Of a stretch of 64,000 bases of DNA, positions 25,810-41,156 are shown piece after piece; position 1 is the stretch's first letter, and every line of letters begins with the position of its first letter. The DNA is taken from positions 26,588 through 90,587 of IMG/VR virus record IMGVR_UViG_3300036819_000331, one strand, 5' to 3'. Made by a program: the position numbers and the translations under genes. The notes under the pieces are model-generated. The model did not search any database. It saw only the letters and a list, made by a program, of their open reading frames with translations, and was not told the DNA's origin. This DNA comes from a virus.

Positions 25810-27053
25810 ACATCCAGTACCAACGGCCGCCGCTGTATCCCAAGCAACTCGCCGCCATCTTCCATGACAAGCGATACGGTTTCATAGAAGCGAGTACCAA
25901 GGCCGGCAAGACCGTCGGAAACATGGCGTGGATTCTGGAAAAGACCCTTATCGGATCCAAGCCGAATCAGAACCGCTGGTGGGTCGCTCCTGTATACGGT
26001 CAGGCGGAAATTGCCTACACGCGCATGAAGCATGGCCTTCCGAAGGGCATATTTGATGCGCACGATACGAAGCTTCGCCTCTCGTTCATCAACGGCGCAA
26101 ATATCTGGTTCAAGTCCGGCGAAAAGCCCGACAACCTCTACGGCGACGACGTTTACGATGTCGTCATCGACGAAGCGAGCAGGCTGCGCGAGGAAGCTTA
26201 TACTGCGATCCGAAGCACGCTTACCGCGACGCGCGGTGCGCTCAGGGCCATAGGCAACGTCAAGGGACGTAAGAACTGGTTCTACCGCCTCTGCCGAAAA
26301 GCCCAGGCGGGCGATCCGACAATGGAGTACCACAAACTCACCGCATATGACGCGGTCGAGGGTGGCGTCCTGGCGGCGGAGGAAATCGAATCCGCGAAGC
26401 GGGAGTTGCCGGAGAATGTCTTCCGGGAGCTTTACCTTGCCGAGCCTTCAGATGATGGCGGCAACCCGTTCGGCATCGCAGCGATTCAGGCGTGCGTTAA
26501 GCCGCTTTCGACCTTACCCGCAGTCTCCTGGGGCTGGGATTTAGCAAAATCCTACGACTGGTGCGTCGGAATCGGCCTCGACAGGAACAGCGACACTTGC
26601 CGGTTCGAACGTTTCCAAAAGCCTTGGCAGGACACGATTTCCTACATAAGGAATGTTACCGGCAATGTCCCGGCGCTTGTGGACAGTACCGGAGTCGGTG
26701 ACCCGGTGCTTGAGGCTCTCCAGGCAAACGGCGGCAACAATTTCGAAGGCTTCAAGTTCTCGCAGCTGAGCAAACAGCAGCTCATGGAAGGGCTGGCGGT
26801 CGCGATACAGCAAAAGCACGTCGGCTACCCGGCTGGCGTCATTGTCTCCGAGCTTGAACAGTTCGAATACGAATATACGCGCACCGGAGTACGTTATAGC
26901 GCCCCGGAAGGATTTCACGATGACTGCGTATGCGGTCTCGCCCTCGCGGTGCGCAGAAAGACAATTCCGCTGCCCGGCGCTGGCTGGCTCGCCTACGCCG
27001 AGTCGCAGGCCGTCGAAGCGCAGAAAGCCGCAGAGAAAGCCAAACACCCTTAA
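25806..27053 (+). CDS. terL: terminase large subunit
   Basis: STKAGKT Walker A, VVIDEA Walker B, GWDLA, DSTGVGDP, HDDCV nuclease motifs. Confidence 0.9.
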   Translation: MNIQYQRPPLYPKQLAAIFHDKRYGFIEASTKAGKTVGNMAWILEKTLIGSKPNQNRWWVAPVYGQAEIAYTRMKHGLPKGIFDAHDTKLRLSFINGANIWFKSGEKPDNLYGDDVYDVVIDEASRLREEAYTAIRSTLTATRGALRAIGNVKGRKNWFYRLCRKAQAGDPTMEYHKLTAYDAVEGGVLAAEEIESAKRELPENVFRELYLAEPSDDGGNPFGIAAIQACVKPLSTLPAVSWGWDLAKSYDWCVGIGLDRNSDTCRFERFQKPWQDTISYIRNVTGNVPALVDSTGVGDPVLEALQANGGNNFEGFKFSQLSKQQLMEGLAVAIQQKHVGYPAGVIVSELEQFEYEYTRTGVRYSAPEGFHDDCVCGLALAVRRKTIPLPGAGWLAYAESQAVEAQKAAEKAKHP

Positions 27054-27071: not shown

Positions 27072-27773
27072 ATGACCACCTATTCGATGCTCGCCCCCGC
27101 GGCCAAGGCCGGATTTACCCAGCAATGCGCGTCCAGTACCACGTATACCGCCGATGCTTATGGCTTCATCACTGGAATCGCCCTGGCCGATGTCGGCGAC
27201 CTCTATAAAGGAGGCTGCATCCCGCTGGGCCAGTCCGGCGTGCGCAGCACGTTCAGCCAGACCGTCGATCCCAGTATCAGCAACGACAACACCCAGGACT
27301 TCGGCATCGGTTCGGAATGGTTCAACACCACGACCGGCCTGATGTGGCGCTGCCAGTCCGCTGCGACCGGAGCGGCGGTGTGGTTGCCGCAGGTTTCGTC
27401 CGGCGTGCTCGTGGGTCGCCTTATCGGCGCGAACATGAACGTCACGACCGACCAGGCCATCAACATGACGGGCTGGACGGCGCTCAACAAATTCCGTCTG
27501 ACCAAGGTAACGGTGAAAAACGCCAGCGTCTCGCTCACGACGGCAGCGGGCGGCATCTACACCGCTGTAAGCAAGGGCGGTACGGCCTATGTGGCATCGG
27601 GTCAGGCCTATAGCGCGCTGACCGGCGCAACGCTGGCGCTCGACCTTACCATCGCCACAACTCCCGGCGTCACGCCTCTTGCGGCGGCCAGCCAGCTTTA
27701 TCTGGCGCTGAGCACCGCGCAGGGCAGCGCAGCAACGGCAGACGTATATTTGTTCGGCGACGCCTACGTGTAA
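27072..27773 (+). CDS. putative virion decoration/structural protein
   Basis: Beta-rich, Thr/Ala/Gly-rich; between terL and portal. Confidence 0.65.
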   Translation: MTTYSMLAPAAKAGFTQQCASSTTYTADAYGFITGIALADVGDLYKGGCIPLGQSGVRSTFSQTVDPSISNDNTQDFGIGSEWFNTTTGLMWRCQSAATGAAVWLPQVSSGVLVGRLIGANMNVTTDQAINMTGWTALNKFRLTKVTVKNASVSLTTAAGGIYTAVSKGGTAYVASGQAYSALTGATLALDLTIATTPGVTPLAAASQLYLALSTAQGSAATADVYLFGDAYV

Positions 27774-27800: not shown

Positions 27801-29369
27801 ATGCCGGAGGGAGGAAAGGTTACGCCGATCTCCCCCGGCGTCGTTGCGCGCGTGACGCGTGCGGCACGATACGTCATCACTGGAAACGCCGACGGATGGT
27901 TCCCCGCAGGCCAGCCGCTCACTCCCCAGGCTCCTCCGGAAGTCCGGGGCCGCCAGTTCGACTACCCGACCTACGTCAATACGACCTATACGCCGCGCGC
28001 GGGCGAGCCGATATCCTTCCAGGATTTGCGCGGCCTCGCCGATAACTGCGACATCCTCAGCTCTGCCATCGAAACCCGCAAGGACCAGATGGAAGCGCTG
28101 GAATGGAATATCCGCATCAAGGCGGACGACAACAACAAGCGTACGACCGCAACGGCAGAGCAGCAGAAGCGCATCGACGCCATCACCGATTTCCTCCAGT
28201 ACCCCGACAAGATCAACAGCTGGGAGCAGTGGCAGCGCCAGCTCCTCGACGACATGTTCGTCATCGATGCGCCGTGCCTCTACAAGCGCAAGGACCGCAA
28301 GGGGCGTCTCTACGGACTCGAAATCATCGACGGCGCGAGCATCAAGATTCTGATTGACGACTCCGGCCGCAGGCCGCTTCCGCCCGATCCGGCCTACCAG
28401 CAAATCATCAAGGGCATGCCGGCGACCAACTACACCAGCGACGAGCTGCTGTATTGGATGCACAATCCCCGCAGCCATAAGGTCTATGGCCGCTCGCACG
28501 TCGAGCAGGTCATCCTGACTGTGAATACGCTGATCCGCCGGGCGCTGTTCCAACTTGAATATTACAAGGAAGGCAGCCAGCCCGACGCATTCTTGGGACT
28601 GCCGAAGGAATGGAATAGCGAGCAGATCATCGCCTTCCAGAAGAATTTCGACGCCATGATGGCGGGCAACCTCGCCATGCGGCGCCGCCTGAAGTTCATG
28701 CCCGGTGAGTTCAAGTACCAGGAGACGAAAGCCCCGCAGCTCAAAGACGAATACGACGAGTGGCTGGCGCGCATCATCTGCTACGTGTTTTCCCTTGCGC
28801 CGACGCCGTTCATCAAGCAGATGAACAGGGCGACGGCGGAATCATCGCATGATGCCGCGCTGGAAGAGGGCTTGGCACCGCTCCAGAAATGGATGCGCAA
28901 GAACGTAAACCGCGTAATCGCCGTAGATTTTGATTCCTCCGATCTCGAGTTCGCTTACGTTGATGACCGAGAACAGGACCCGCTGCAGGCGGCCCAGATC
29001 AACCAGATCTACGTCCAGGCCGGAATAATGTCGGTCGATGAGACGCGTGAGAATATCGGCTTAGTGCCGCTCGGTGGCGCTGCCGCTGTGGCAATGCCGC
29101 TCACAGCGACCGGGTTCGTCGCACCGAAAACTCCCGAAGAGCAGCAGGCAGATGCCGACGCTCAGACGCAAGCAATGCAGGCAGCTGCGGAGGCGCGCGC
29201 CAAAGCTGGGCAGAACGGAGCGCAGTCGAACGGTAATCAAAACGACCCGAAACACGGTGGGGGCGATGCGCCTCCTAGTAAGGATACGGACGACGCGAAG
29301 AAAGCAGCTCCTGCCAACTTAAAAAAAAAGCCCAACCCATATCTCCTCATGACCGGGCGCAGGCATTAA
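27801..29369 (+). CDS. portal protein
   Basis: LRGLAD..I.TRKDQ..F...PD..D..VIDA..IDG..I..DPAYQQI..G.S.VEQ..NRATAE. Confidence 0.9.
   Translation: MPEGGKVTPISPGVVARVTRAARYVITGNADGWFPAGQPLTPQAPPEVRGRQFDYPTYVNTTYTPRAGEPISFQDLRGLADNCDILSSAIETRKDQMEALEWNIRIKADDNNKRTTATAEQQKRIDAITDFLQYPDKINSWEQWQRQLLDDMFVIDAPCLYKRKDRKGRLYGLEIIDGASIKILIDDSGRRPLPPDPAYQQIIKGMPATNYTSDELLYWMHNPRSHKVYGRSHVEQVILTVNTLIRRALFQLEYYKEGSQPDAFLGLPKEWNSEQIIAFQKNFDAMMAGNLAMRRRLKFMPGEFKYQETKAPQLKDEYDEWLARIICYVFSLAPTPFIKQMNRATAESSHDAALEEGLAPLQKWMRKNVNRVIAVDFDSSDLEFAYVDDREQDPLQAAQINQIYVQAGIMSVDETRENIGLVPLGGAAAVAMPLTATGFVAPKTPEEQQADADAQTQAMQAAAEARAKAGQNGAQSNGNQNDPKHGGGDAPPSKDTDDAKKAAPANLKKKPNPYLLMTGRRH
29324..29330 (+). other. candidate -1 frameshift site A AAA AAG (portal to MuF)
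   Basis: Correct phase in the portal frame; -1 frame open into the MuF ORF. Confidence 0.55.
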
Positions 29370-29407
29370 AGTCCCGCGCGGCCATAAAGAGGCTCGCTGG
29401 GAAGGTT

Positions 29408-30091
29408 TTGGCGAAAACCGCCAGTTCGGTAGCCCGGCAGCTTAATACAGCGCTGGGCAAGCTCGCCAAGGCCGATGATGCCGACGACCAGTCGGATGGA
29501 ATCGTAAGCGAACTCGACCTCAATCTGCTGACGGGCCTCTCGGCAGTGCATCCGTGGCTGGAGGACGTGGCGGCGGATCGAGCCGGTGATGAGTTGCTAT
29601 CGCTTGGGATCTCCGAGGATACAGATTTCTTCAGCCACGCAAATACGCGCGCGGCAGATTACGCCAAAGACCGCAGCGCTGATCTGGTCACCCAGATCGA
29701 CGAATCCACGCGCGACATGCTCCGCCGGAAGATCGCCGACGGTATCGCCGCGGGTGCGATGCGGGAAGACATCATCGATTCCATCATGGACTCGGATATC
29801 TTCAGCGAGTCGCGCGCCACGCTAATCGCTGATACCGAAGTCGCGATGGCGAACGGGCAGGGGGGGCTTGCCGGTTACAAGGAAGCCAAAGCCGCGGGCG
29901 TGAAGTTGAAGAAGGTCTGGGTGTGCGATTCTGATCCGTGTCCTATCTGCGAAGAAAATGAAAACGCGGGCGAAATAGACGTTTCAGATTCCTTCCCAAG
30001 TGGCGATGATGCTGAAATCGCTCACATTAATTGCCTGTGTCACACAGAATCCGTGGTCGAGGATGACAAGGAAGAGGATGACGACGAATGA
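29408..30091 (+). CDS. MuF/SPP1 gp7-like minor head protein
   Basis: RA.LIA.TE...A...G...KKVW....CPIC..N..G.I....FPSG....AH.NC.C; only a TTG start. Confidence 0.85.
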   Translation: MAKTASSVARQLNTALGKLAKADDADDQSDGIVSELDLNLLTGLSAVHPWLEDVAADRAGDELLSLGISEDTDFFSHANTRAADYAKDRSADLVTQIDESTRDMLRRKIADGIAAGAMREDIIDSIMDSDIFSESRATLIADTEVAMANGQGGLAGYKEAKAAGVKLKKVWVCDSDPCPICEENENAGEIDVSDSFPSGDDAEIAHINCLCHTESVVEDDKEEDDDE

Positions 30092-38190: not shown

Positions 38191-38592
38191 ATGACCGACT
38201 TCGAAGACGCGCCCAAAGTGAGCCTTGGCGGTAAAGACTGGCCCATACCCCTCATGGCTGCGCGCCAGAACCGCGTCATCGACCCGCTCATCCTGAACCT
38301 GCTGCCTCTGTTCGCCGAATTGCAGGTCAATAAGGCTGCGGGCATGGCGAAGCTCGGGACCAAAGAATATGACGCCCTGCAGGACATTGCACTGCATGCC
38401 ATCCGCCGCGCGCGGCCGGAGACGACGAAAGACCAGTTCCTTGACCTCCCCATTACCCTTCCCGAGCTTGTGGCGGCATTCCCGATAATCGCTCAGCAAA
38501 CCGGCATCTTCAAGCGAGGTGAGCCGGGGGAAGCGACGGGGGCGGTGAGCCCCCAGACTGGGACAGAATCATTGCAAACGTCTGCCACCTGA
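38191..38592 (+). CDS. tail assembly chaperone (G-like)
   Basis: Between tube and tape measure; slippery G GGG GAA at 38526-38532. Confidence 0.8.
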   Translation: MTDFEDAPKVSLGGKDWPIPLMAARQNRVIDPLILNLLPLFAELQVNKAAGMAKLGTKEYDALQDIALHAIRRARPETTKDQFLDLPITLPELVAAFPIIAQQTGIFKRGEPGEATGAVSPQTGTESLQTSAT

Positions 38593-38786
38593 CGGGCTGG
38601 ACGTGGGACTACGTCGACGAGACGCTGACCGTTCCCCGCCTTGAGGCCATGTATGCGGAGTGGAAACGCAATCCGCCCCTGCCGCTGATGGTCAAGGCCT
38701 ATCTGGGGATAAAGGATACGCCTGACGTGCCACCCGGCCCCGCTCAGCTGCCGGGATTCGCAACCATGCCAGATATTGAGGAATAG
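38529..38786 (+). CDS. tail assembly chaperone T segment expressed by -1 frameshift
   Basis: -1 frame reads DWDRIIANVCHLTGWTWDYVDETLTVPRL..W..NPP to TAG 38786. Confidence 0.8.
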   Translation, partial: GSDGGGEPPDWDRIIANVCHLTGWTWDYVDETLTVPRLEAMYAEWKRNPPLPLMVKAYLGIKDTPDVPPGPAQLPGFATMPDIEE

Positions 38787-38789
38787 GAA

Positions 38790-41156
38790 ATGGCGGACGA
38801 CGTCCAAGTTCGCTTCGGCGCACAAATTGAAGGCCTCATTGCCGGGGTAGAGGCAGTCAAAGCCCAGATCAGCACCATTTCGGCCCCGATAAATTCCGTC
38901 GTCTCGTCGTTCGGGGAGATGAAAGAAGCGTTGCTCGCGGCCTTCGCCATCGATAAGGGCGCTGAGTTTGTCGATCACATCACCGGCATTGGAGAACAGA
39001 TTCTCCGCGCTACGGAGATGACCGGGCTGAGCGCCGAGGAATTTCAGACGCTTCAATATGCGATGAAGGTGACCGGAACGGAAACCGGCAACCTCGGCAT
39101 CGTCATCGACAGGCTGGAGCGCAACATTGCGCTTGCGCGCGGCGGCAGCGGGCAGGCGGTGCAGGCGTTTCAGACGCTCGGCGTCACGATGGCGGACCTG
39201 AAGGAAAAATCGCCTTACGAAATCATCCAGAAAATCGCCGACGGTTTTCACAACCTGAAAGACCCGATTCTTGCGGCAGGCGCCGCGACCGAGGTCGGAT
39301 CGCGGGGATTCGCGCAGATGCTGCCCGCCCTGAAGTCGGGCAGTGACGGGTTGAAAGAGTTCGGGGAGGCTTTCAAGCAGACTGGTTCATACCTCAATGA
39401 CGCACAGGCCGGCGCCTTCGCTAAAACCCACGAAAGCCTGATTGAACTCGAAACTGCGCTGCAAGGCACTGGTGTGCAATTGGTAAGAACGTTGAAGCCT
39501 GCTATCGATTTGGTCGTGACCGCATTGACCGGCTTGATCGAAGCGATTAACTGGGTGATAGGAAAGTTTGCTGACCTCGTCAGCATTATTGAAGGCAGCG
39601 TTCTTGTCGTAATAGCGAAGGTTATAGAGCAGATAGAAGACTTTGGCGCTGAATCTGTCGCCAATTTGGAAAAGGTGAAGATTGCCTGGCAGGCGCTCGG
39701 GCGCACGATCGAGGATGTTCGCGACGGCCAACTATCCGAAGTTTCATCGGAGTGGAACATCGCCAACGCCCAGATGGAGGTGGCGAGTAAAAAAGCCGGT
39801 GTCGCGATTCAGGAGTACGGCAGACAATATCAGGATCTGGTCGGCCAGATTGCGAAGGCGACCGGCGCGCTCACGAATTTCTGGGGCAACCTCGGTGAGA
39901 AGCCAGGCGAGAGGGGCGGCGGTGGCGCGCTGGGGACGAACAAGGAAGACGGTAGCGCAGAGAAAAATGAAATCGCTATCGAAAAAAGCGATCTGCAGAG
40001 AAACCTTGAGCTCTACCGGCTCGACGTAGCCGCGAAAAAAGATGCCGATGATGCAAAGGTCGCTTCGGGGCAAATGACGAAGCAGGCCGAGCTTGCCGAC
40101 CTGATGAATCTGGTGGGGCAAGAACGGGACGTGGTTCTGGGTGAGATCACTGAGGAACGCGATCTCTATGACCGTGATTCGGCCGACTGGGAGGAGTTGA
40201 ATAATAAAAAGCTCATCGTGGCCAAGCAATACGCCAATGAACTCGCACGGCTTAACGCGCAGAGCGCCCAAGCACAGGCAGCAGATCTGAAGAAGCTGGA
40301 AGAGTCGTACAAGTCGATGTTTTCATCGATTGATCGTGCGATGGACGGCGCATTACAAGGTGTTTTACAAGGAATCCAGACGTTTAGCCAAGCCACTGCG
40401 CGCCTCTTTGGCGACATGGTGACCTCCATGCTGGAGGATATCGCAAAACTCACGCTTCGCTGGTCGGCCTTCGAGGCGTCGAAGGGCCTATTCGGGGCTG
40501 GAGATACCGTTACGAAGGCTATTGGAGAGCAGGTCCCCACCGCTCTCGGCGGAACGCAGCAAAATAGCGTACTGAATGCGGCGATGACGAAGCTCGCCGC
40601 AGTCATGGGCATAAACACGGCGGCGCATACCGCTGGCACCGTGGCGACCACAGGCAATACCGTGGCCACAGCCAGCGATACGGTAGCGACTGGAAGTTCC
40701 ACGGTTGCGACTACTGCCGGAACACTGGCGACATCCGTCAACACGACAACGACGGCTTCCAGTGGCTTTCTCCACATCGCGGCGCTGGCGGAAAACACCC
40801 TTGCAACCGCAGCCAATACTATTGCGACGGACCTCCTGAAGATAGCGATGTTCATCAAGAGCATTCTGCCAAGCTTCGCCGTCGGCAATTGGAACGTCCA
40901 AAGTGATATGGTCGCGCAAATTCACGCTGGAGAGATGATCGTTCCAGCGGCGCAAGCCGCCCAGATTCGCAATGGCGCTGGGTTTGGCGGGAGCGCCAGT
41001 TATGGGGGCGGAAGTGGCGGCGGCAACTATACGATCAATATAAATGCGATTGATACGCAGACTGGCGCGCAGTTCCTCAAAGCGAATGCATCCGTAATCG
41101 CTCAGACCTTGTCCGGGCAGGTGCGTAATTTTAATCCCGCGCTGCGGGCGAATTAA
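38790..41156 (+). CDS. tape measure protein
   Basis: Long helical ORF after chaperones; C-terminal FAVG.W.V..DM.A.IH.GEMIVP; TVAT heptad-like repeats. Confidence 0.85.
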   Translation: MADDVQVRFGAQIEGLIAGVEAVKAQISTISAPINSVVSSFGEMKEALLAAFAIDKGAEFVDHITGIGEQILRATEMTGLSAEEFQTLQYAMKVTGTETGNLGIVIDRLERNIALARGGSGQAVQAFQTLGVTMADLKEKSPYEIIQKIADGFHNLKDPILAAGAATEVGSRGFAQMLPALKSGSDGLKEFGEAFKQTGSYLNDAQAGAFAKTHESLIELETALQGTGVQLVRTLKPAIDLVVTALTGLIEAINWVIGKFADLVSIIEGSVLVVIAKVIEQIEDFGAESVANLEKVKIAWQALGRTIEDVRDGQLSEVSSEWNIANAQMEVASKKAGVAIQEYGRQYQDLVGQIAKATGALTNFWGNLGEKPGERGGGGALGTNKEDGSAEKNEIAIEKSDLQRNLELYRLDVAAKKDADDAKVASGQMTKQAELADLMNLVGQERDVVLGEITEERDLYDRDSADWEELNNKKLIVAKQYANELARLNAQSAQAQAADLKKLEESYKSMFSSIDRAMDGALQGVLQGIQTFSQATARLFGDMVTSMLEDIAKLTLRWSAFEASKGLFGAGDTVTKAIGEQVPTALGGTQQNSVLNAAMTKLAAVMGINTAAHTAGTVATTGNTVATASDTVATGSSTVATTAGTLATSVNTTTTASSGFLHIAALAENTLATAANTIATDLLKIAMFIKSILPSFAVGNWNVQSDMVAQIHAGEMIVPAAQAAQIRNGAGFGGSASYGGGSGGGNYTININAIDTQTGAQFLKANASVIAQTLSGQVRNFNPALRAN

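Follow-up and report, generated by a model that had tools for sequence, protein, structure and literature searches.

Our analysis concerns the end of the portal gene in a window of 64,000 nucleotides (nt) of viral DNA (IMG/VR record IMGVR_UViG_3300036819_000331, positions 26,588 to 90,587), where the reading frames of the portal and of the minor head protein MuF meet. Our comparison with related phages suggests that a run of nine A's at this place is most likely a conserved slip site, and that both a plain portal and a longer portal-MuF protein are made. Most decoding would stay in frame, end at the TAA at 29367-29369 and yield a portal of 522 amino acids (aa). A fraction would shift into the -1 frame on TTA AAA AAA AAG, run on to position 30091 and yield a portal-MuF fusion of 763 aa. 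Both the production of the fusion and its proportion are what we infer from the sequence. Since MuF lacks a dependable start of its own, all or most of it would be produced attached to the C-terminus of some portal subunits. We think it highly probable that the site is recoded by one route or the other. As the route that the family shares we favor -1 slippage of the ribosome, and we put the odds that it is the main route at about even.

The portal-MuF junction in the window

The list of open reading frames (ORFs) and their translations places the portal gene at 27801-29369, on the plus strand, like the other features of the junction. Its product matches the Phage_portal family (PF04860, E = 1.8e-17, 64 bits against a curated cut-off of 39.1) and positions 32-476 of the PHROG profile phrog_2662 (E = 6.5e-73). 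Close to its end lies the A9G tract (29321-29330), with a T at 29320, A's from 29321 to 29329 and a G at 29330. The portal reads this stretch as TTA (29319-29321), AAA, AAA and AAG (29328-29330). The tract holds two overlapping in-phase heptamers, A_AAA_AAA (29321-29327) and A_AAA_AAG (29324-29330). The second stands in the X_XXY_YYZ phase of the portal frame, with AAA and AAG as its zero-frame codons. Twelve sense codons follow the AAG, and the TAA is the 13th codon past it. An earlier note on this DNA had drawn attention to this motif and its phase, and the sequence agrees with it on both. The tract is the sole run of nine or more A's in the window. Across the genome (7.9 Mb, 62% GC) there are three A or T runs of nine, the tract included, and none that is longer.

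The -1 frame is free of stops from 29282 to a TGA that ends at 30091, as had been noted before. It overlaps the portal end from 29282 to 29369. The first codon after a shift would be GCC (29330-29332), from which the MuF extension of 253 aa plus stop covers 29330-30091; past the tract it reads KKAQPISPHDRAQALKSR... This ORF matches positions 526-716 of phrog_2662 (E = 5.4e-22). The Phage_Mu_F domain (PF04233) with its C-terminal Cys/His motif lies at 29720-30046, residues 147-255 of the frame counted from 29282 (E = 5.8e-9, 37.1 bits against a curated cut-off of 29.6), and the C, H, C and C columns are invariant in the MuF alignment. The predicted fusion has 510 + 253 = 763 aa, in line with the approximately 760 aa expected beforehand.

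The closest profile, phrog_2662, is itself a fused portal-MuF of 717 positions, labelled 'portal', that spans both ORFs. The two ORFs match separate, successive parts of this profile and are therefore the two halves of what was once a single protein. Permanent fusions of portal and MuF, mentioned in the earlier note, do exist in a number of relatives. A single open frame of about 715-790 aa is found in Neisseria prophages, in an acidobacterial metagenome-assembled genome and in many viral contigs. Among cultured phages the nearest are Polewnik and Strzyga of Brevundimonas (44% identity), whose portal has 774 aa, and gp3 of Arthrobacter phage Sonali is annotated as a 'portal and MuF-like fusion protein'. 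A blastn search among cultured phages found nothing that matches the portal-MuF region. In 60 related genomes a DNA search returned the window and, apart from it, only part of a second portal, on a contig of 1.5 kb. Among 400 genomes of the phylum a protein search returned one fused relative and two fragments. The partial second portal (L047, G000:C37:4-972) belongs to the same genome and is 46% identical to the first; it may come from a second related prophage or be a bin contaminant.

Where the frame changes can be read from the beginning of MuF. The window's N-terminal MuF motif, P-I-S-P-H-D-R, begins four codons past the tract and matches the P[IV]DRDR motif of the fused relatives. The same conserved motif, P[IV]DRDR-like outside the window, lies 3-6 codons past the tract in the -1 frame of every split locus, and in the fused proteins it comes after the K-rich junction. 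Hence, the frame change must occur at the tract.

A separate start for MuF is difficult to identify. The first start codon of the -1 frame past the tract is a TTG (29408-29410), the sole candidate for independent initiation, and the next is a GTG 46 codons further on. The earlier statement that MuF has only a TTG start is borne out, and we can add that the position is not conserved. In the nucleotide alignment of the window's own clade it is TTA in one member (L049) and CTG in another (L209). In L049 the 74 codons past the tract include no ATG, GTG or TTG, and L049 shares with L006, L207 and L279 a lack of these codons over 60-82 codons. The MuF coding part has no conserved initiation site of its own.

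Recurrence and conservation of the -1 arrangement

We gathered about 285 related loci by portal-based and MuF-based scans. They show four arrangements at one and the same domain boundary: portal and MuF fused, MuF overlapping in the -1 frame, separate genes, and portals without a MuF of this type nearby. Fusion in frame accounts for roughly half of the MuF-bearing loci (the portal scans gave 45 distinct junctions of this kind, and the MuF scan gave 39 among 80 loci). Truly separate genes, in which MuF has its own start just ahead of its motif, occur in L068/L074 (with a ATGCTTGA overlap) and in L239, L251 and L287, where the start lies just past the portal stop. Portals without a MuF of this type nearby make up 84 distinct loci.

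MuF lies in the -1 frame in 31 distinct loci, which group into 18 clusters when the MuF identity is set at 70% and into 11 when it is set at 50%. Each of the 31 carries an in-phase X_XXY_YYZ heptamer: AAAAAAG in 22, AAAAAAC in three, AAAAAAA in two, CCCTTT[T/A/C] in three and GGGAAAA in one. A further -1 locus, L286, is without one. The recurrence of motif and phase among homologues, which had been proposed as a check, is thus found. The background is low: only 3.6% of 90-nt windows inside portal cores contain an in-phase heptamer. As a control we used portals with a non-MuF ORF overlapping in the -1 frame, and here two of 25 have an in-phase heptamer, one of which (L129) looks like a real slip site. 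Every split locus that bears a tract requires a -1 shift, and the +1 cases have no tract and have starts of their own. Among the 27 distinct loci with an A tract its length is 10 in 17, nine in nine and eight in one; six or seven A's are found in none.

The clade of the window consists of the window and four other loci (L048, L049, L208 and L209), with 62-77% identity. All five members carry xTA AAA AAA AAG, that is, nine A's. When their nucleotides are compared, the linkers ahead of the tract resist alignment, and from the tract onwards the sequence is highly conserved. Another clade, that of L207, has ten A's in ten of ten members. On the portal tree, well-supported branches force at least four changes of the A-tract -1 state. 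Once present, this state has survived over path lengths of 0.6-1.1 changes per site, during which MuF has stayed open and has retained its invariant residues, Cys/His and others. Neither gene decay nor variation of the tract in the DNA fits with a fixed tract length and a persisting -1 state.

The short tail that the portal gains when no shift occurs may also be under selection. Just past the tract, the differences between the window and L049, and between L004 and L034, are synonymous in the zero frame and nonsynonymous in the -1 frame, such that N-P-Y-L and T-Y-P-V are kept. Farther past the tract it is the MuF frame that is conserved in both pairs. This pattern is suggestive of selection on the zero-frame tail as well, that is, of both frames being used. 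We do not accept it as decisive proof, since the -1 frame strongly constrains the same nucleotides.

In the L207 clade the zero frame ends in Tyr-TGA in ten of ten members, written by the rare Ile codon ATA followed by NTG and then A in the MuF frame. A Tyr followed by a stop also ends the unshifted portal elsewhere, in eight clusters in all (the L207 clade, L006, L202, L039, L279, L271, L262 and L252), and the recurrent Tyr-stop is encoded by rare xTA codons (ATA, CTA, GTA) together with CTG-A in the MuF frame. This hints at selection on a C-terminal Tyr of the plain portal.

Proposed slippage by the ribosome or by RNA polymerase

Slippage by the ribosome would work as follows. On A_AAA_AAG the Lys tRNAs in the P and A sites both move back by one base and pair again, and translation proceeds in the -1 frame into MuF. 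Of the two routes, only ribosomal slippage accounts for all 31 junctions, those at CCCTTTN and GGGAAAA among them. In L039 a hairpin of 13 bp stands 7 nt past CCCTTTA, at the classical spacing (z = -2.3).

The strongest alternative is slippage of RNA polymerase. The nascent RNA would slip on the nine A's, a share of the transcripts would gain an extra A, and normal translation of these would give portal-MuF; transcripts that are one A short would give a third, short product. The earlier note had named transcriptional slippage as an alternative to a programmed ribosomal shift. The comparison supports its reading of a programmed site, and the alternative that it named stays a serious rival, although we do not expect it to be the main route.

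Several observations weigh against the ribosome and most of them suit the polymerase. First, we found no conserved 3' stimulatory structure in 20 loci or in the five-sequence alignment. The 70 nt downstream of the tract in the window fold at z = -1.06, and the consensus fold of the five clade sequences reaches -8 kcal/mol without a compensatory pair. Significant downstream hairpins occur only in L039 and L034; most other loci fold no better than shuffled sequences. The clade alignment likewise contains no conserved element upstream of the tract that resembles a Shine-Dalgarno (SD) sequence. Second, the host genome encodes both tRNA-Lys(UUU) and tRNA-Lys(CUU) according to aragorn. A CUU tRNA lowers slippage on AAG, as seen for E. 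coli dnaX. The earlier note had called A AAA AAG an efficient motif: motif and phase are as described, but the efficiency known from E. coli may not transfer, because the host has the tRNA-Lys(CUU) as well. (The same scan of the whole genome finds one tRNA-Pyl(CTA) and one tRNA-SeC, and no tRNA inside the window.) Third, the tracts are long. Of the 27 tracts, 26 have nine or ten A's and one has eight, and the minimal six or seven are never seen. Rare codons provide the extra A, for example TTA, CTA and GTA, or else CAA and GAA in place of CAG and GAG, in phages that are rich in GC. Productive slippage of bacterial polymerases begins at nine to ten identical bases, as in Thermus dnaX (A9) and Shigella mxiE (T9). 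Hence, the length of the tract suits polymerase slippage at least as well as it suits a second tandem heptamer.

One could argue that the position of the final AAG codon speaks for the ribosome. We rejected this argument as proof, since the loss of one A from an in-frame (AAA)n gives the same phase; the in-phase AAG could simply be inherited in this way. In-frame tracts of seven to ten A's do exist at the homologous K-rich junction of seven fused relatives (L033, L062, L077, L124, L170, L184 and L193), and four of the seven have the in-frame (AAA)n form. That fused relatives keep in-frame tracts of nine to ten A's at the same site also fits the polymerase; their -1 and +1 frames close after 4-38 codons. 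The junction peptide (...L-K-K-K-A-Q-P...) is identical by both routes and does not discriminate between them.

Two points limit what the polymerase can explain. Four lineages reach the same -1 junction by CCCTTTN or GGGAAAA, with MuF lacking a start for 16-82 codons. These sites cannot support polymerase slippage, and because the polymerase cannot slip on such short runs, this route fails to cover the whole family. In addition, A9G amounts to two tandem in-phase heptamers, which explains the ninth A in terms of the ribosome. For the window locus itself we think that polymerase slippage on the nine A's probably contributes to a shift that the ribosome may dominate.

It is improbable that the frame break is a one-base deletion without function, either in a decaying prophage gene or in a phase-variable tract that switches MuF on and off at the DNA level. 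Such a deletion would fit with the prophage nature of the element, with the fast mutation of homopolymer tracts and with the occurrence in the family of tracts both in frame and out of frame. The long retention of the -1 state with an open MuF and intact invariant residues does not fit, nor does a tract length that is fixed within both clades. That every tract-bearing split locus needs a -1 shift speaks against it as well. Finally, the structural module around the pair is intact, and the assembled contig of the source sequencing run (see below) shows no length variant.

A second explanation without recoding we regard as highly improbable. MuF would be translated alone from the TTG at 29408, and the A tract would merely encode a Lys-rich portal tail. 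In its favor, GGGAAGG precedes this TTG, the same context is found in L048 and L208, and some relatives do have separate genes. However, the purine-rich stretch stands just 2 nt from the TTG, and the codon itself is replaced in two of the five clade members. Homology to the fused proteins and the P-x-x-x-x-D-R motif begin at the tract, upstream of the TTG, and relatives with separate genes start MuF at the motif and not 25 codons later. An incidental tract would also not recur in phase in 18 clusters, given the background frequency of heptamers in portal cores.

An assembly or sequencing error, with ten A's in the true DNA and a plain in-frame fusion, had been raised in the earlier note and is very unlikely, close to negligible. 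Errors are common in homopolymers, the genome was recovered from soil metagenome data and some fused relatives have in-frame tracts of nine to ten A's, but the -1 arrangement recurs in many samples and loci with heptamers that are not homopolymers break the frame alike. Only one public run contains the stretch; it is soil metagenome DNA and probably the source, and no RNA run is listed for the stretch. An independent Logan contig of that run, made by a second assembler, is identical over 28900-29800 and has nine A's at a depth of 11.5 and no indel (at the contig level), which answers at that level the earlier question of nine or ten A's. Nine A's in the -1 arrangement are also found in L048, L049, L208 and L209, which come from different samples, all ten members of the L207 clade have ten A's in this arrangement, and zero-frame tails appear to be conserved in their own right.

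Related recoding systems and a possible role in the copy number of MuF

A close counterpart is the -1 frameshift of the tail assembly chaperones G/GT, known from lambda and from most phages with long tails (Levin, Hendrix and Casjens 1993; Xu, Hendrix and Duda 2004; as cited in PMC3556154 and PMC7911831). The portal-MuF site resembles it in several ways. In both, a structural gene of the phage bears, close to its end, an X_XXY_YYZ heptamer that is in phase and conserved, and the ORF that follows lacks a start. Both give a short product and a C-terminally extended one, which for portal-MuF is a prediction. In both the heptamer varies by lineage while position and phase are kept, and some relatives use a permanent fusion instead. 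The differences are that portal and MuF belong to the head vertex and are not tail chaperones, and that the tract nearly always has nine to ten A's. Located in the head module, the portal-MuF site is not a member of the G/GT family, though it would work alike.

The second likeness is to dnaX, which encodes tau and gamma. In E. coli the ribosome shifts by -1 on A_AAA_AAG, aided by an SD sequence and a stem-loop, and in Thermus thermophilus RNA polymerase slips on nine A's. The window shares the slip sequence and, for a tract of nine A's, the same ambiguity between ribosome and polymerase. It differs in that the shift lengthens the protein, in that no conserved SD-like element or stem-loop accompanies it, and in that the host has a tRNA-Lys(CUU) that E. 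coli lacks. It is the fused relatives with an in-frame tract that mirror the dnaX layout, in which the shift yields the short form: slippage there would give a plain portal. The permanent fusions (phrog_2662, the Neisseria prophages, vB_BpoS-Polewnik with its 774 aa, and Sonali gp3) have the same two domains in the same order, with the K-rich junction and the P[IV]DRDR-like motif. They have one open frame and carry MuF on every portal subunit. In the window the frame is broken at the junction and two products are expected.

In head genes, -1 shifts that give a minor extended virion protein are found near the end of T7 gene 10 (10A/10B) and of the major head protein gene of Lactobacillus phage A2 (for A2, Garcia et al. 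2004, as cited in PMC10885494). The extensions in T7 and A2 are short tails or parts of the capsid decoration. MuF, on the other hand, is a separate, conserved domain of head morphogenesis, which other phages encode as a gene of its own.

What could be the benefit of such an arrangement? The C-terminus of portal proteins lies in the crown and faces the capsid interior. Hence, a C-terminal MuF would sit inside the head, at the portal. We infer that the fusion sets the copy number of MuF on the inner, C-terminal face of the portal dodecamer. In SPP1 the portal gp6 and gp7, a member of the MuF family, are encoded by separate genes and associate noncovalently (PMC5576092). A substoichiometric portal-MuF fusion would hard-wire this association. 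If the fusion is made, then it is the error rate of decoding, and not binding or separate expression, that determines how many copies of a head-internal protein are placed at the unique portal vertex. This would be a direct answer to the question of how proteins of the MuF/gp7 type reach only a few copies per capsid.

We found no report of a portal-MuF frameshift in full-text literature searches; PRFect mentions MuF only in pairs of MuF and ADP-ribosyltransferase. The class of mechanism is well known from G/GT, dnaX, T7 10A/10B and phage A2, but both the pairing of these genes and the mirror layout seem to be new. One could go further and propose that portal-MuF recoding is a second widespread, conserved and so far unannotated frameshift of tailed phages beside G/GT. 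It would have two mirror layouts, one split, in which a slip gives the fusion, and one fused with the same A tract, in which a slip gives the plain portal, both fixing the number of MuF domains inside the portal dodecamer. We see about equal grounds for believing and for doubting this proposal. If it is true, a conserved recoding pair of the head module joins a short list that is led by G/GT. The occurrence of tracts of nine to ten A's and of classical heptamers at one homologous junction also provides a natural system to compare slippage by ribosome and polymerase. There is a practical side as well: gene callers now assign such MuF ORFs arbitrary internal starts, for example the TTG at 29408, or may report the two ORFs as one broken gene.

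The slip site may be able to load other cargo domains onto the portal. In L129 (3835-4617; 63% portal identity) the portal ends on GTA AAA AAA ACT, with eight A's and an in-phase A_AAA_AAA. The ORF that overlaps in the -1 frame has 260 aa and is not MuF; it consists of an acidic stretch rich in Gly and Ser followed by a C-terminal domain without a Pfam match.

The order of genes in the window is terminase, portal, MuF, then protease/scaffold and capsid, with MuF directly after the portal. Between the large terminase and the portal lies an ORF of 233 aa (27072-27773) that has no Pfam match and a weak PHROG match of unknown function. The window also has a tail chaperone pair of its own at 38191-38786, made up of an ORF of 133 aa (38191-38592) and a -1 ORF that is open from 38523 to 38786. 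The overlap of this pair contains no canonical in-phase X_XXY_YYZ heptamer and only G- or C-rich runs, such as CCG GGG GAA and AGC CCC CAG; an ORF of 788 aa starts at 38790.

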